DNA of 61,363 nucleotides from assembly GCF_003334785.1 (NCBI RefSeq), contig NZ_QOWV01000020.1; one strand, given 5' to 3'. Each line of letters opens with the position of its first letter. Within the stretch, counting starts at the first letter, position 1. Positions 41,401 to 47,636 of this stretch are shown here, in pieces. The position numbers were made by a program, and so were the translations under genes. Source of the stretch: Escherichia coli. Its GTDB lineage: Bacteria > Pseudomonadota > Gammaproteobacteria > Enterobacterales > Enterobacteriaceae. The notes beneath the pieces are model-generated. The model was given only the letters and a program-made list of their open reading frames with translations, was not told where the DNA came from and made no database searches.

Positions 41401-44400
41401 TGGCGAGATGGCGCAACAGGGCAACGTTCCCGCAAGCGTGTGCCACGCCTGCGGCAGTGCCGGGTTCCGATGATCGGTAACGCAAAAAGCCTCGCCCTGA
41501 GGAACAACGTATGCCGCCAGCGTTTTTTCTTTTTCGCCGATCGCCAGAACGGTTGCTTGTTTCACCCCCACCAGCTGGCTGAGCGCGCTTTCGATTTCGC
41601 CCAGCTCGATGCGATATCCTCCGACTTTGACCTGCTTGTCGCGACGACCGAGGAACTCGATTGTGCCATCTGGCCAGTAGCAGCCGAGATCGCCGGTGCG
41701 ATACCAGCGCTCGTCCGGGAGCGTCAAAAATTGCTGCTCGCTACGCAGGGGATCGTTGAAATAGCCTTCCGCGACCCCAATGCCGCCAATCCATAATTCA
41801 CCCGGCACCCAGTCAGGGCAGTCCCGGCCCTGTTCATCCACCACCCGGTAGCGTTGGTTGGTTAGCGGAAAACCGTAAGGGATGGAGCGCCAGTGGGCGG
41901 GGACGTCGTGAATTTCGCAGGCGTTAGACCAGATAGACGCCTCGGTGGCGCCGCCCATCGCGATAAATTGTCCTTGTGGCCGGAAGGCCCGATAACGGGC
42001 GGGGAGGTCAAGCCCGATCCAGTCGCCGGAAAGCATCACTGCGCGCAGGTTTTCCGGCGTGGCGTCGGCGAAACCTTCACACCAGGTCAGCAGCATATCG
42101 AACAGCGCCGGGACGCTGTTCCAGAGCGTGACCTGATGGCGCTGGATCAGCTCACACCATGCGTGAGGATCGCGCCGTTGATTTTCCATCACCATCACCA
42201 GCGCGCCGCCCGCGCGCAGTACGCCAAAAATGTCGTAAACCGATAAATCAAAATGTAGGGCGGAGAGGGCCAGCACCCTGTCATGCGGGCCAACCTGATA
42301 GCGGGTATTGATATCGCAACAGGTGTTAAGCGCTCCCCGGTGAGAAATGACTACCCCTTTCGGCGTACCGGTAGAGCCGGAGGTGTAGATAATGTAGGCC
42401 GGTTGCGTGGGGGCGCGTACTACCGGGTTGGCGATCGGCTCCGCCTCAATGGCCTGCTGCCAGGCAAGGGCGGGAATATCGTCTGACCCGGCGCTGGCGT
42501 CGTGCTGACAAATGAGCACCAGCCGGACGCTGGCGTCAGCGTAGATTTTCTCGCGCCGTGCGGCAGGCTGATCCAGCGAAACCGGAACGTAAACCGCCCC
42601 GGCCAGCAGGACGGCCAGAACCGCAACAAGTTGTCCTGCGCCTTTCGACATCGTGATAGCCACATTATCGCCGGGCTGAACCCCGCACTCGATTAACCTG
42701 CCCGCGCAACGGCGGGCATAGTCTGTCAGCTCATGATAATTCCACTGATAACGCATGTCCGTTACCGCCAGCGCCTGCGGCTGTTGCAGAGCGATACGGA
42801 AAATGCCTTCATGCAGCAAGCCTTCGGGAATGGGGGCGCCGGTGGCGTTGACCCGTTCGCGTATCGCGCGCTGGCTGGCGGGCATCATATCTGCGAACGG
42901 CTTTTGCCAGGCGCTTTCGTCATCGCAGAGTTGGTTAATCAACTGGCAGTAGGCGTCGAACAATGTTTCGACTAACGCCGGAGGGAACAGCGCGTCGTTG
43001 CTGTCCCATTGTAGCCAGACCTCGCCGTGATGCTCGAACGCCAGATGATCTATCCAGACCTGCGGCGTTTGCGAGATGCCCCATTCCGGCTCGCCCAACG
43101 GCGATTCTGCGCGGCTGCTGTAGAGGGAACGCCCCAGATTGCTGGTAAATACCACCGGGGCGCCGTGGGGGTAGCGCTGCTGGCGTTTGAGTTCACGGAG
43201 TAATTCGACGCCGGACCAGTGGCGATGCTCCCAGTCCTCCGTAAACGTGAGCTGGTTTTTACGCGCCAGGTTGCTGACGGTATCGCCATCGCAGGCGGTA
43301 TCCAGCAGAAGAATATTGGTGAAGTCGGCAAGCATCGCGCCAACCGCCGGTTGCAGCGGCTGGCGGTCGAATAAGGTGATGTTAAGCAGCAGACGCGTCA
43401 GGCCGCCCCAGCGAGCCAGCACGGCAGAAAAACAGGTCGCCAGTGCCATTGTCGGCGTCACGCCATACTCGCCGGCCCGGTTGCTAAAGGCGTGCCAGCG
43501 TGTTGCCGGGACAATCATGCGGCGTCGGGTATTACGGACTTCACGTAGCGTGGCGGGTTCGCAGGCCAGCGGCAAGACGGGCGCGGGGGGAAGCGTCGAT
43601 GCTTTCGCCAGCCAGTAAGCGCGCGCGACGTCTCTCAGTGGTTGATTGATCTTCTGCTGGTGCAGCAAATACGAGCGGAAATCATAGCGGGTGTCGATAG
43701 CCGGCAGCGATTCTCCGGCCAGCAGGGCGTTAAGCTCATCGAAGAAAAGCGTAAAGCTGGAGGCATCCATAATCAGCAGGTCAATATTGACATGGAGGCG
43801 GTGGCGATTGTCCGGCAAGAGCGTCAGCTGAAAATCAAACGTTTCGCCGATTTCCACGCGTAAAAGACGGTGGCTCAGGCGCTGGCGCAGTGCGTCCAGA
43901 TAGGCCTGGCGGCTTTCAGCGTCGTTATGGCGTAAATCATGAACGGTGACGCCGTTCCAGTAAGGTTGCGGTAGCCAGACCTGCTGCCCGTCGGGGCGAA
44001 AGGCGATATGCAGCATTGGGTGGCGTTGCAGCAAGGTCGTGATGGCCTGCTCCAGCTGCGACGCCGTCAGACAATGGCCTTCAAACTCCTGATACAGGTG
44101 GCAACCCACGCCGCCAAGCGTCTGCCCCGGCATGCGGCCCGTCAGGTAGGCGTGCTGTACTGGCGTCAATGGGAAGGGGGTACTTTCGGTCATGTTCGGC
44201 CAGGATGATTCGTCGGGCGGCGTTTCTTCTTCCGCGTTCTCCGGCGACCGGCTGAGCATTAACTGGTTCCATGCCGCCAGCGTGGGGGCGGCATACAGCT
44301 CGCGAAGGGTAAGGCGGTAGCCATTTTTACGAAACCAGTGTAACCATCTCATCAATCTTATGGAATCCAGACCGGCCTGGATCAGGTTGCTCTCTTCATG

Positions 44401-44517
44401 TAACTGCTGCGGCGTTAAATTCAGTTCCTGTATGAGCCGCTCGCGTAATTGTTGGTAATCAGCCGCGTGGCGGTTGTCCGGTAACAGCGAATCCTGAGAT
44501 GGTGCGCCAGAAATCAT
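38410..44517 (-). CDS. irp2: HMWP2, NRPS yersiniabactin synthetase (cyclisation / adenylation / carrier domains)
   Basis: Uninterrupted ORF; probable start MISGAPSQ at 44517 (ORF track 44535). Adenylation motifs [42 protein letters not shown] motif [14 protein letters not shown]. Confidence 0.95.
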
Positions 44518-44564
44518 TCTTCCTCCTGATGGCACGTCTTACCGAAAAGCATTACTCATATGAG

Positions 44565-44625
44565 AATAATAATTATTAACAATTGGATGCTACCCGAAAC
44601 GGGTTTATTTATGCCCGTTTCGGGT
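44565..44625. promoter_or_regulatory. irp2 promoter region: Fur-box-like site plus YbtA-type inverted repeat
   Basis: AATAATAATTATTAAC (Fur-like) followed by ACCCGAAACGGGTTTATTTATGCCCGTTTCGGGT, sharing its core with the repeat upstream of fyuA. Confidence 0.55.
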
Positions 44626-44644
44626 TGGTAACAGGCGGAAAGAA

Positions 44645-44675
44645 CAGAGGCCCGGATGGGGTATCCGGGCCTCTG
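44645..44675 (-). terminator. Hairpin downstream of ybtA (putative terminator)
   Basis: Perfect inverted repeat CAGAGGCCCGGAT-GGGG-TATCCGGGCCTCTG immediately 3' of the ybtA stop. Confidence 0.5.
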
Positions 44676-44707
44676 TCAGGGAGGAGTTTAGGGGGGCGCG
44701 ACCCCGG

Positions 44708-45667
44708 TTACATCCCGCGTTTAAAGGTCGAAGGAGTTACGCCAAACTGTTTCTGGAAGGCGGCAGAGAAATGGCTGGCGTTGGCATAGCCCAGATCGGC
44801 CGCCACCGTCATGACGGAGGTATTGCCGTTGGCCAGGCGTCTTCTGGCTTCCTGCATTCGTTCAGCCTGAAACAGGCCATAGACGCTGTTGTTGAACAGA
44901 ACGCGGAAGCCTCGCTTAATTTTGAGAACGCTCAGACCGGACTCTCTGGCCAGCTCCGCGACGCCCGGCGCTTGCGTCAGATCAGCCAGCAGCAGATCCT
45001 TCGCCCGCAGCAGTTTCTGGCGTTCCATCGGGTTGAAGTGGCAGGAGAGGCAACTGGCGTCTTCGCGATGTTCATCCAGCACCAGACTGAGCATGACCAG
45101 ACTTTGCCCCTGCAACCATAGCGTCGACGGCTTTTGTTCATGACTGAAGCCGCCGTGCATGCGCATCAGCGCGTGACGCAAGGCCTGAGCCGTTAAGTGG
45201 GTTTCAGCATTACAACGCTGCTGCTGGCAACAGCAGTGGGAGTCGATCTTATTCTTAATGACCGCGCTAATATCCGGCACCCACAGCGCGAGGGTTTCAG
45301 GGCTGAAGGAGAGGGTAATGCTCTCGAATCGGCCACAATAGGAGGCGCTGCCGCGACAGTCTGGCGTATGGGTAATGTAATGACGATTGCGCGCAAGCTC
45401 CCAGTCGGTGTGGCGCCGGAGTCCCTGAATCGCAAAGCGCGATGTGCCTTCCAGGATGCACGAGAAGTTAATCCTGCCCAGATCGTCGTGTAGCTGCAAC
45501 GTCTCAGGCCGCGCAAAATGGCCCCTCCAGAGCAAAATATCCATACCTTCCTGCAACGAACAGCGCAGCAGTTCACACTGAGCAGGAATATTGCCATCGT
45601 TTGCAGGTTTCCCGACCACCAACTGGTGAATAGAGATTTCAGATTGCGTTTGCGGTGACTCCATCAT
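44708..45667 (-). CDS. ybtA: AraC-family transcriptional activator of the yersiniabactin regulon
   Basis: 319 aa; C-terminal AraC-type HTH (...ANASHFSAAFQKQFGVTPSTFKRG); divergent from ybtP. Confidence 0.9.
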   Translation of the reverse strand: MMESPQTQSEISIHQLVVGKPANDGNIPAQCELLRCSLQEGMDILLWRGHFARPETLQLHDDLGRINFSCILEGTSRFAIQGLRRHTDWELARNRHYITHTPDCRGSASYCGRFESITLSFSPETLALWVPDISAVIKNKIDSHCCCQQQRCNAETHLTAQALRHALMRMHGGFSHEQKPSTLWLQGQSLVMLSLVLDEHREDASCLSCHFNPMERQKLLRAKDLLLADLTQAPGVAELARESGLSVLKIKRGFRVLFNNSVYGLFQAERMQEARRRLANGNTSVMTVAADLGYANASHFSAAFQKQFGVTPSTFKRGM

Positions 45668-45737
45668 GACCTGGTTATCTCCCTGTGGCTTAGACCAATG
45701 CGGGTATAAATAGAACCGAATGGGGTAGATGAGTTAT

Positions 45738-45756
45738 TGATAATGGTTATTATTCA
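45738..45756. promoter_or_regulatory. Fur-box-like site in the divergent ybtA / ybtP promoter region
   Basis: TGATAATGGTTATTATTCA matches about 13 of 19 positions of the Fur consensus GATAATGATAATCATTATC. Confidence 0.45.
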
Positions 45757-45833
45757 CATTAATTCTCAGAACGCCACCCTGAATTGTCGTTTTTGGCGTC
45801 CGTAAAAATTCATCAGGAAATTCAGTTACTCCC

Positions 45834-47636
45834 ATGTCATCTCAATCATCCAATACTGAATCGCTGTCCCGATTTCCTCTCTGGCAGGTGATTACACCGG
45901 TTCGCAGGAAGGTTATTTTAGCTATGGCGCTGGCGGGGCTGGCGGCATTAACCAGCCTGGGGGCGCTCCTTTTTCTGGCGTGGAGCCTGCGTGACATTCG
46001 CGCGACGCCTGACGCTATTCCGGCCTGGCCGCTGGGCGGCGTGATCGGCTGCGTGGTCTTAACTTTTGTTCTGCGCTTACAGGCGTTCAACACCTCTCAT
46101 TACGCGGCTTTTCATCTGGAGAACATTCTGCGCAGCAGGTTAGCCCGTAAAGCATTGCAGCTTCCGCCAGGCGTGTTACAGCAAATGGGCAGCGGGTCAG
46201 TGGCGAAAGTGATGCTGGATGACGTGAAGTCGTTACATATTTTTGTGGCCGACAGCACGCCGCTCTATGTCCGCGCGATCATCATGCCGCTGGCGACAAT
46301 CGTTATCTTGTTCTGGCTGGACTGGCGGCTGGCAATCGCGACGCTGGGGGTACTGGCGTTTGGATCGGTTGTTCTCGTGCTCGCCCGCCAGCGTTCGGAA
46401 GATATGGCTCAGCGTTATCATAAGGCGCGCGAGCAGGTTAGCGCGGCGGTTATTGAGTTCGTGCAGGCCATGCCCGTGGTGAGAACGTTTGATAGCGGCA
46501 GCACCAGTTTTTTGCGCTATCAACGCGCCCTTGAAGAGTGGGTCGATGTGCTCAAAACCTGGTATCGCAAAGCCGGTTTTTCAGCGCGTTTTTCCTTCTC
46601 GATTCTGAATCCTCTCCCGACCCTGTTTGTCCTGATCTGGTCGGGATACGGCCTGTTGCACTATGGCAGTTTCGATTTTATCGCGTGGGTGGCCGTTTTA
46701 CTGATGGGCAGCGGAATGGCCGAAGCCGTAATGCCAATGATGATGCTCAATAACCTGGTCGCGCAAACGCGTTTAAGCATTCAGCGTATTTATCAGGTTC
46801 TCGCGATGCCGGAGTTATCGCTGCCGCAGTCTGACCAGCAGCCGCAAGAGGCGAGCATTACCTTTGAGCAGGTGAGCTTTCATTATCCGCAAGCGCGTAC
46901 TGGCGCCGCGTTGCAGGAGGTGAGCTTTCATGTGCCTGCCGGGCAAATTGTGGCGCTGGTCGGGCCAAGCGGTGCCGGAAAAAGCACCGTGGCGCGCTTG
47001 CTGCTGCGTTACGCCGACCCGGACAAAGGCCATATCCGTATTGGCGGCGTGGATCTGCGTGATATGCAGACGGACACCCTGATGAAGCAACTCTCGTTTG
47101 TGTTTCAGGACAACTTCCTTTTTGTCGACACGATAGCCAATAACATTCGTCTGGGCGCGCCGGATACGCCGCTGGAGGCGGTAATAGCGGCGGCCAGAGT
47201 GGCGCAGGCCCATGATTTTATTAGCGCTCTGCCAGAAGGTTACAACACTCGAGTCGGGGAACGTGGGGTATTTCTCTCCGGCGGCCAGCGGCAGCGCATT
47301 ACTATCGCCCGGGCGCTTTTGCAGGATCGCCCCATCCTGGTGCTCGATGAGGCGACGGCGTTTGCTGACCCGGAAAACGAAGCGGCGCTTATCAAGGCGC
47401 TCGCGGCGGCCATGCGTGGCCGGACGGTCATCATGGTCGCGCATCGTCTCTCAATGGTGACTCAGGCCGATGTGATATTGCTGTTTTCCGACGGACAGCT
47501 CAGGGAAATGGGGAACCATACGCAACTGTTGGCGCAGGGCGGCCTGTATCAACGGCTCTGGCAACACTATCAGCAGGCGCAGCATTGGGTGCCGGGTGGA
47601 ACACAGGAAGAGGTGGTGGAAAATGAAAGACAATAA
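45834..47636 (+). CDS. ybtP: ABC transporter, fused permease-ATPase (yersiniabactin uptake)
   Basis: 600 aa; N-terminal TM domain; Walker A GPSGAGKST, ABC signature LSGGQRQR, Walker B ILVLDEAT. Confidence 0.9.
   Translation: MSSQSSNTESLSRFPLWQVITPVRRKVILAMALAGLAALTSLGALLFLAWSLRDIRATPDAIPAWPLGGVIGCVVLTFVLRLQAFNTSHYAAFHLENILRSRLARKALQLPPGVLQQMGSGSVAKVMLDDVKSLHIFVADSTPLYVRAIIMPLATIVILFWLDWRLAIATLGVLAFGSVVLVLARQRSEDMAQRYHKAREQVSAAVIEFVQAMPVVRTFDSGSTSFLRYQRALEEWVDVLKTWYRKAGFSARFSFSILNPLPTLFVLIWSGYGLLHYGSFDFIAWVAVLLMGSGMAEAVMPMMMLNNLVAQTRLSIQRIYQVLAMPELSLPQSDQQPQEASITFEQVSFHYPQARTGAALQEVSFHVPAGQIVALVGPSGAGKSTVARLLLRYADPDKGHIRIGGVDLRDMQTDTLMKQLSFVFQDNFLFVDTIANNIRLGAPDTPLEAVIAAARVAQAHDFISALPEGYNTRVGERGVFLSGGQRQRITIARALLQDRPILVLDEATAFADPENEAALIKALAAAMRGRTVIMVAHRLSMVTQADVILLFSDGQLREMGNHTQLLAQGGLYQRLWQHYQQAQHWVPGGTQEEVVENERQ

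Follow-up and report, generated by a model that had tools for sequence, protein, structure and literature searches.

The ybtA-irp2 intergenic region of the Escherichia coli High-Pathogenicity Island: a hairpin downstream of ybtA followed by a Fur- and YbtA-controlled irp2 promoter

The stretch of DNA that was analyzed (61,363 nucleotides, referred to here as the window) carries an E. coli copy of the High-Pathogenicity Island (HPI), in which ybtA and irp2 are both located on the minus strand. Positions 44518 to 44707 corresponded exactly to the 190-bp region between the two genes, based on the RefSeq annotation of an E. coli record that was 100% identical. This annotation agreed with the gene identities that had been assigned in a sequence-only reading of the same DNA, and it placed the irp2 promoter directly 5' of irp2 (HMWP2), inside the ybt cluster. 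The order of the island genes in the identical record was tRNA-Asn, a frameshifted integrase, ybtS-X-Q-P, ybtA, irp2, irp1, ybtU-T-E, and fyuA. A 1.5-kb stretch around the site matched E. coli strain 7/2 at 100% identity, and 2266 of the 5426 complete E. coli genomes carried it with at least 99% identity. The irp2 promoter drives the two giant synthetases of yersiniabactin, a siderophore that contributes strongly to the virulence and fitness of extraintestinal E. coli, Klebsiella, and Yersinia.

Some features of the wider locus were recorded during the annotation. The integrase (52224 to 53376), which adjoins a tRNA-Asn gene at 53301 to 53376, is annotated in the identical record as a pseudogene with a frameshift, and three further tRNA-Asn genes were present in the window at positions 9518, 11927, and 13751. 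For ybtP, the longest open reading frame started at an ATG at position 45834 (600 amino acids), while RefSeq placed the start 90 nt downstream at position 45924 (570 amino acids); depending on which start is correct, the ybtP leader, as measured from the divergent ybtA/ybtP promoter, would be shorter or longer.

Downstream of the ybtA stop codon, which ended at position 44708, the minus strand contained, in order, a C-rich stretch of 31 nt, a hairpin, the sequence UCUUUCC, two YbtA-type repeats (RS1 and RS2), a Fur box, a leader, and the irp2 ATG. The individual features were as follows:

44708 to 45667, minus strand: the ybtA coding sequence, encoding the AraC-family regulator YbtA (open reading frame list, identical RefSeq record, and matches to the AraC-type C-terminal HTH).
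44644 to 44676, minus strand: a GC-rich hairpin, the proposed intrinsic terminator and 3'-end stabilizer of ybtA (inverted-repeat search, folding, covariation, and copy number).
44637 to 44643, minus strand: an imperfect U-tract, UCUUUCC, adjoining the stem (sequence).
44614 to 44625, minus strand: RS1, the upstream YbtA repeat, ACCCGAAACGGG (inverted-repeat search and 12-mer count).
44592 to 44603, minus strand: RS2, the downstream YbtA repeat, CCCGTTTCGGGT (inverted-repeat search and alignment with the fyuA and ybtP promoters).
44562 to 44580, minus strand: the Fur box, GTTAATAATTATTATTCTC (consensus scan; the same sequence was shifted by Fur in an EMSA, PMC11225919).
44566 to 44571, minus strand: a candidate -10 element, TATTAT (5 of 6), located within the Fur box (predicted by reading the sequence).
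44515 to 44527, minus strand: the irp2 Shine-Dalgarno sequence AGGAGG (44522 to 44527) and the ATG (44515 to 44517) (sequence and RefSeq irp2 start).

NCBIfam contained no YbtA-specific model, and YbtA yielded generic AraC-family matches that were all below the cut-offs. In the case of irp2, the open reading frame list extended the gene to a GTG at position 44535. The RefSeq start and the AGGAGG-N4-ATG arrangement both favored a start at position 44517, and the AGGAGG and ATG were invariant across all of the lineages that were aligned.

The sequence-only reading had described a perfect 13-bp stem at positions 44645 to 44675. As indicated by the inverted-repeat search, this stem is part of a slightly longer one: the arms at 44644 to 44657 and 44663 to 44676 formed a perfect 14-bp stem with a 5-nt loop, and a terminal G-U lengthened it to 15 pairs. 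The hairpin started 31 nt past the ybtA stop codon on the sense strand, and the sequence flanking the stem was rich in C and poor in G. The minus-strand RNA had a predicted folding energy of -29.3 kcal/mol, compared to -12.7 +/- 2.4 kcal/mol for shuffled sequences (z about -7), and none of 200 shuffles folded as well. The plus strand folded nearly as well (-28.7 kcal/mol), and a pyrimidine tail was found only on the ybtA-sense strand. This tail, TCTTTCCG, contained 4 T nucleotides in the 8 bases after the E. coli stem. Our terminator scan, which required at least 5 T in the 8 bases following a stem, did not report the E. coli hairpin. An Rfam scan of positions 44000 to 46200 yielded no match at the permissive threshold of E ≤1. 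The literature that we searched contained no mention of the hairpin, nothing relevant on a terminator for ybtA or a mapped start for irp2, and no 5' or 3' transcript ends for this junction.

Like known intrinsic terminators in enterobacteria, the proposed ybtA terminator is a GC-rich stem-loop that lies in the sense orientation just past a stop codon, and it is followed by a pyrimidine- or U-rich tail. It differs from them in the unusual length of its stem (14 to 15 bp) and in the E. coli U-tract, which is interrupted and falls below the scan threshold.

The hairpin occurred at a median of one place per genome, and only in the 2266 HPI-positive genomes among the 5426 E. coli genomes. A dispersed palindrome of the REP/BIME type was rejected on the basis of this distribution, namely, one copy per genome and confinement to the island. 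The allele present in the window was found as an exact match over a 50-nt hairpin segment in 1507 of the 2266 HPI-positive genomes. A second allele (locus L011, positions 121 to 170), which was found as an exact match in 440 of the 2266 genomes, including an O25:H4 strain, carried a C-to-A change at position 44654 in the 3' arm. This change opened one G-C pair and weakened the predicted fold from -29.3 to -23.1 kcal/mol. Since the C-to-A allele is common in HPI-positive E. coli, the full stem is not strictly required.

We also examined the hairpin in comparative loci, which were collected via a genome scan with YbtA, plasmid matches, and a metagenome scan for irp2 promoters of the K. oxytoca-complex type. 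In loci of the K. michiganensis type, three consecutive stem pairs were changed on both sides relative to E. coli (C-G to A-U, A-U to C-G, and G-C to A-U), and the stem was followed by a canonical run of six to eight T nucleotides, which reached at least 5 U in 8. The homologous element in this lineage thus combined a canonical stem with a U6-8 run, as in known enterobacterial terminators. Across 9 distinct related sequences from about 3 lineages, in which the covariation stems essentially from one lineage split, pairing was retained in 83% of the cells in the proposed register, compared to no more than 52% when the 3' arm was slid by 1 to 3 columns. The hairpin core, GGCCCGGA/TCCGGGCC, was kept inside an otherwise variable ybtA-proximal part of the region. 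The K. oxytoca-type loci had an 8-bp stem core only, with a poor tail (z = -1.9), and no hairpin was found in the ybtA relatives of Pectobacterium and Serratia (52 to 56% identity), in which the RS elements were located about 20 nt past the stop codon. The covariation and the T-run on the ybtA side support the idea that the hairpin is selected at the RNA level and in the ybtA-sense orientation, as would be predicted for a terminator. These compensatory changes are a modest new addition to what is known about the region.

A separate element was noted in these alignments. A CCTCC-containing motif at positions 44680 to 44686 (CUCCUCC on the minus strand), which is located just upstream of the hairpin, was conserved in every lineage that we examined, and the stretch that separates the hairpin from the ybtA stop was otherwise poorly conserved around it. 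The pairing predicted for this motif with the irp2 ribosome binding site did not stand out significantly from shuffled sequences.

RS1 started 18 nt beyond the hairpin stem. The YbtA-type repeat noted in the sequence-only reading was readily located here, as the RS1/RS2 pair (44592 to 44625) consisted of perfect 12-bp inverted arms separated by a 10-nt spacer. The exact RS 12-mer occurred three times in the 61-kb window, compared to an expected 0.007 occurrences, and all three were in the irp2 and fyuA promoters. Matches to the 12-mer were meaningful at 0 or 1 mismatch only; a search that allowed up to 3 mismatches was uninformative because it returned 46 matches, with 46 expected. The irp2, fyuA, and irp6/ybtA promoters have been described as carrying RS elements to which YbtA binds (PMC5634559, PMC8725597). 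In addition, each RS arm (44592 to 44604 and 44613 to 44625) was itself a small palindrome, ACCCG-AAA-CGGGT, which gives the element four CCCG/CGGG half-sites. The terminator scan reported one of the arms as a 5-bp mini-hairpin on the plus strand.

The Fur box was located 11 nt beyond RS2. What had been described from the sequence as a Fur-like element, a 16-mer at positions 44565 to 44580, lies within a 19-mer (44562 to 44580) that matched 15 of 19 consensus positions when read on the plus strand and had a perfect AATAAT-T-ATTATT palindrome core. The irp2 Fur box and the site between ybtA and ybtP (45739 to 45757) were the two best Fur matches in the 61-kb window. Two sites with no more than 4 mismatches were observed, compared to an expected 0.14, and 4% of simulated windows reached two such sites. 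The identical Fur site has been reported previously; it precedes the irp2 ATG by 44 bp and overlaps a predicted -10 element, and purified Fur shifted an irp2 promoter fragment in an EMSA (PMC11225919).

Related arrangements were identified at two other positions in the island:

25278 to 25342, minus strand: the fyuA promoter copy, with RS1-RS2 at 25309 to 25342 and a Fur-like site at 25278 to 25296 (repeat and Fur searches, and alignment).
45701 to 45757, plus strand: the ybtA/ybtP divergent promoter copy, which was more degenerate, with RS elements at 45701 to 45728 and a Fur box at 45739 to 45757 (inverted repeats and alignment).

The irp2, fyuA, and ybtP promoters shared a layout in which RS1 was followed by an AAATA-containing spacer, an RS2 that ended in GGGTAG, 9 to 11 nt of sequence, and a Fur box. 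This RS1-RS2-Fur layout is the published architecture of the island promoters. From RS1 through to the ATG, the sequence was nearly invariant in E. coli, K. pneumoniae, Salmonella, K. oxytoca, and K. michiganensis, and the part upstream of RS1 varied. The RS1-RS2-Fur order was also retained in Pectobacterium, in which YbtA identity was 55%.

AraC-family class II activator-dependent promoters, such as araBAD and rhaBAD, have activator half-sites directly upstream of and overlapping a poor -35 element. The irp2 promoter appeared to be of this kind. A sigma-70 consensus scan of positions 44300 to 46000 identified no promoter and no recognizable -35 element, which we read as the expected result for an activator-dependent promoter and not as counter-evidence. 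Judging from the spacing, RS2 would abut or overlap the expected -35 position, so YbtA may supply a contact that RNA polymerase otherwise lacks. In contrast to the known class II promoters, the irp2 sites are inverted 12-mers, each of which is a small palindrome, and a Fur operator overlies the putative -10 element. Downstream of this point, a leader of about 35 to 45 nt was followed by AGGAGGAAGA-ATG. The exact -10 element, the transcription start, and the class II geometry of the irp2 promoter are predictions made from the sequence.

The conclusion that irp2-irp1-ybtUTE has its own iron-regulated promoter, which the sequence-only reading had also reached, is in good agreement with published data. 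In addition to the Fur EMSA (PMC11225919), Fur ChIP in the uropathogenic E. coli strain CFT073 identified irp2, ybtPQXS, fyuA, and ybtA as direct members of the Fur regulon. YbtA is known to activate irp2, fyuA, and ybtP and to repress ybtA (PMC5634559, PMC8725597), and others have shown that irp2 expression depends on YbtA and on iron. Four separate ybt operons have been published, and this four-unit organization has been repeated for E. coli (PMC8805033). Furthermore, when strain UTI89 was exposed to Cu-yersiniabactin, irp2 mRNA went up and ybtA mRNA went down within 5 min; because the two mRNAs responded in opposite directions, obligatory co-transcription of ybtA and irp2 is hard to reconcile with the data. 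In its genes, its RS1/RS2 elements, its Fur sequence at 44 bp from the ATG, and its place in the four-operon organization, the promoter examined here matched the published ybt irp2 promoter with no substantive difference; what we describe is the E. coli island copy. Hence, the irp2 promoter half of our results is already known, established biology and follows the regulatory design of the island without departure.

Based on the results described above, we think it likely that the region contains two adjacent and functionally separate minus-strand elements, the putative ybtA terminator hairpin and then the Fur/YbtA-controlled irp2 promoter. In the proposed mechanism, the ybtA mRNA would be initiated near 45.7 kb, at the divergent ybtA/ybtP promoter, and would end, for the most part, at the 14- to 15-bp hairpin (44644 to 44676) and the adjoining UCUUUCC, with the hairpin acting as an intrinsic terminator and as a protector of the 3' end. 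The ~20-kb irp2-irp1-ybtUTE operon would be initiated independently, about 80 to 90 nt downstream of the hairpin. YbtA and its yersiniabactin co-activator would bind to RS1/RS2, and YbtA bound there would provide the RNA polymerase contact in place of the absent -35 element, in the AraC-type, class II-like manner. When iron is plentiful, Fe-Fur on the 19-bp box would cover the -10 region and block initiation. A short leader and a strong AGGAGG ribosome binding site would then precede the irp2 ATG.

The part of this mechanism that concerns insulation calls for more caution. The sequence-only reading had proposed that ybtA transcription is insulated from the irp2 operon. The hairpin is strong, correctly oriented, and covarying, which favors this proposal, but the T-run (TCTTTCC) is imperfect and the scan did not call it. 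We regard insulation as plausible, with some read-through possible. Because the E. coli U-tract is imperfect, termination at the hairpin is probably efficient but incomplete.

If the hairpin were leakier than this, substantial ybtA read-through would enter irp2, the two genes would be partly co-transcribed, and insulation would be only partial. The interrupted U-tract and the lack of a scan call point in this direction, as do the high frequency of the natural stem-mismatch allele and the existence of hairpin-free Pectobacterium and Serratia relatives with RS elements shortly after the ybtA stop. However, the stem is very stable, ybtA and irp2 are treated as separate units in the literature, and the rapid, opposite shifts of the two mRNAs with Cu-yersiniabactin are not what substantial read-through would predict; we therefore consider such a leaky hairpin to be unlikely. 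It is also conceivable that the hairpin does not terminate transcription, that the ybtA mRNA is instead terminated by Rho or processed farther downstream, and that the hairpin only shields its 3' end from exonucleases. The weak U-tract and the C-rich, G-poor flanks of the stem would fit this explanation, but Rho would have little space to load, as fewer than 200 untranslated nt are available before the active irp2 promoter and the translated irp2 gene are reached, and a textbook intrinsic terminator occupies this position in sister lineages. A role restricted to 3'-end protection thus seemed very unlikely to us.

The palindrome could instead be a DNA-level element that has no role in transcription, such as a protein binding site, a cruciform, or a mobile or REP-like relic. 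A perfect palindrome that folds almost equally well on the plus strand is what this explanation would predict. Nevertheless, the element is present in a single copy per genome and is confined to the island, it had no Rfam match, the arms are changed in the K. michiganensis-type loci with pairing kept, and the T-run is on the ybtA-sense side only. We consider a purely DNA-level element to be extremely improbable.

A variation on the terminator reading is that the hairpin allows some read-through and that its strength as a terminator is tunable, differing between island lineages. The U-run was canonical in the K. michiganensis types and interrupted in the E. coli and Yersinia types, and the mismatch allele was present in about one-fifth of the HPI-positive E. 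coli genomes; Pectobacterium and Serratia had no hairpin. In that case, read-through from the autoregulated ybtA promoter might set a YbtA-independent basal level of biosynthetic expression that differs from clone to clone. We view this as quite unlikely.

Another candidate, masking of the irp2 ribosome binding site in read-through RNA by the CU-rich tracts around the hairpin, was rejected. These flanking tracts were complementary to the irp2 Shine-Dalgarno sequence, and the in silico probability that the irp2 AGGAGG is unpaired was 0.06 to 0.19 in read-through RNA, compared to 0.27 to 0.47 in promoter-initiated RNA. When the upstream segment was dinucleotide shuffled, equal or stronger masking was observed in 8%, 13%, and 30% of the trials for the three lineages. 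Masking was not significant relative to the shuffles and, since shuffled sequences gave similar masking, the effect is compositional.

Taken as a whole, the results mainly confirm that the annotation of the window is correct. The hairpin and the common stem-weakening allele could matter for modeling how ybtA autoregulation is coupled to siderophore output.

Loci outside the classical island arrangement provided some additional observations. In distant ybtA-like loci of Pectobacterium spp. and Serratia marcescens (L004, positions 3940 to 4060; L005; and L006, positions 3930 to 4025), RS1-RS2 was kept, and the Pectobacterium loci also kept a GAATGATTATCATTTTC Fur box. The gene downstream of these elements was not irp2; it encoded a protein of about 130 amino acids with no NCBIfam match, and the downstream open reading frame in L004 looked frameshifted. 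In Klebsiella indica TOUT106 (L001, positions 3960 to 4145), ybtA was followed by a hybrid promoter, in which the irp2-type RS1-spacer-RS2 was fused to a fyuA-type Fur box and leader, and then by a fyuA-like gene. This gene was full length and encoded a TonB-dependent siderophore receptor of 673 amino acids. The 5' arm of the ybtA hairpin was absent from this locus. It appears that irp2-irp1-ybtUTE was deleted in TOUT106 via recombination between the paralogous promoter copies; if so, the receptor and the transporter would remain without the synthetases.
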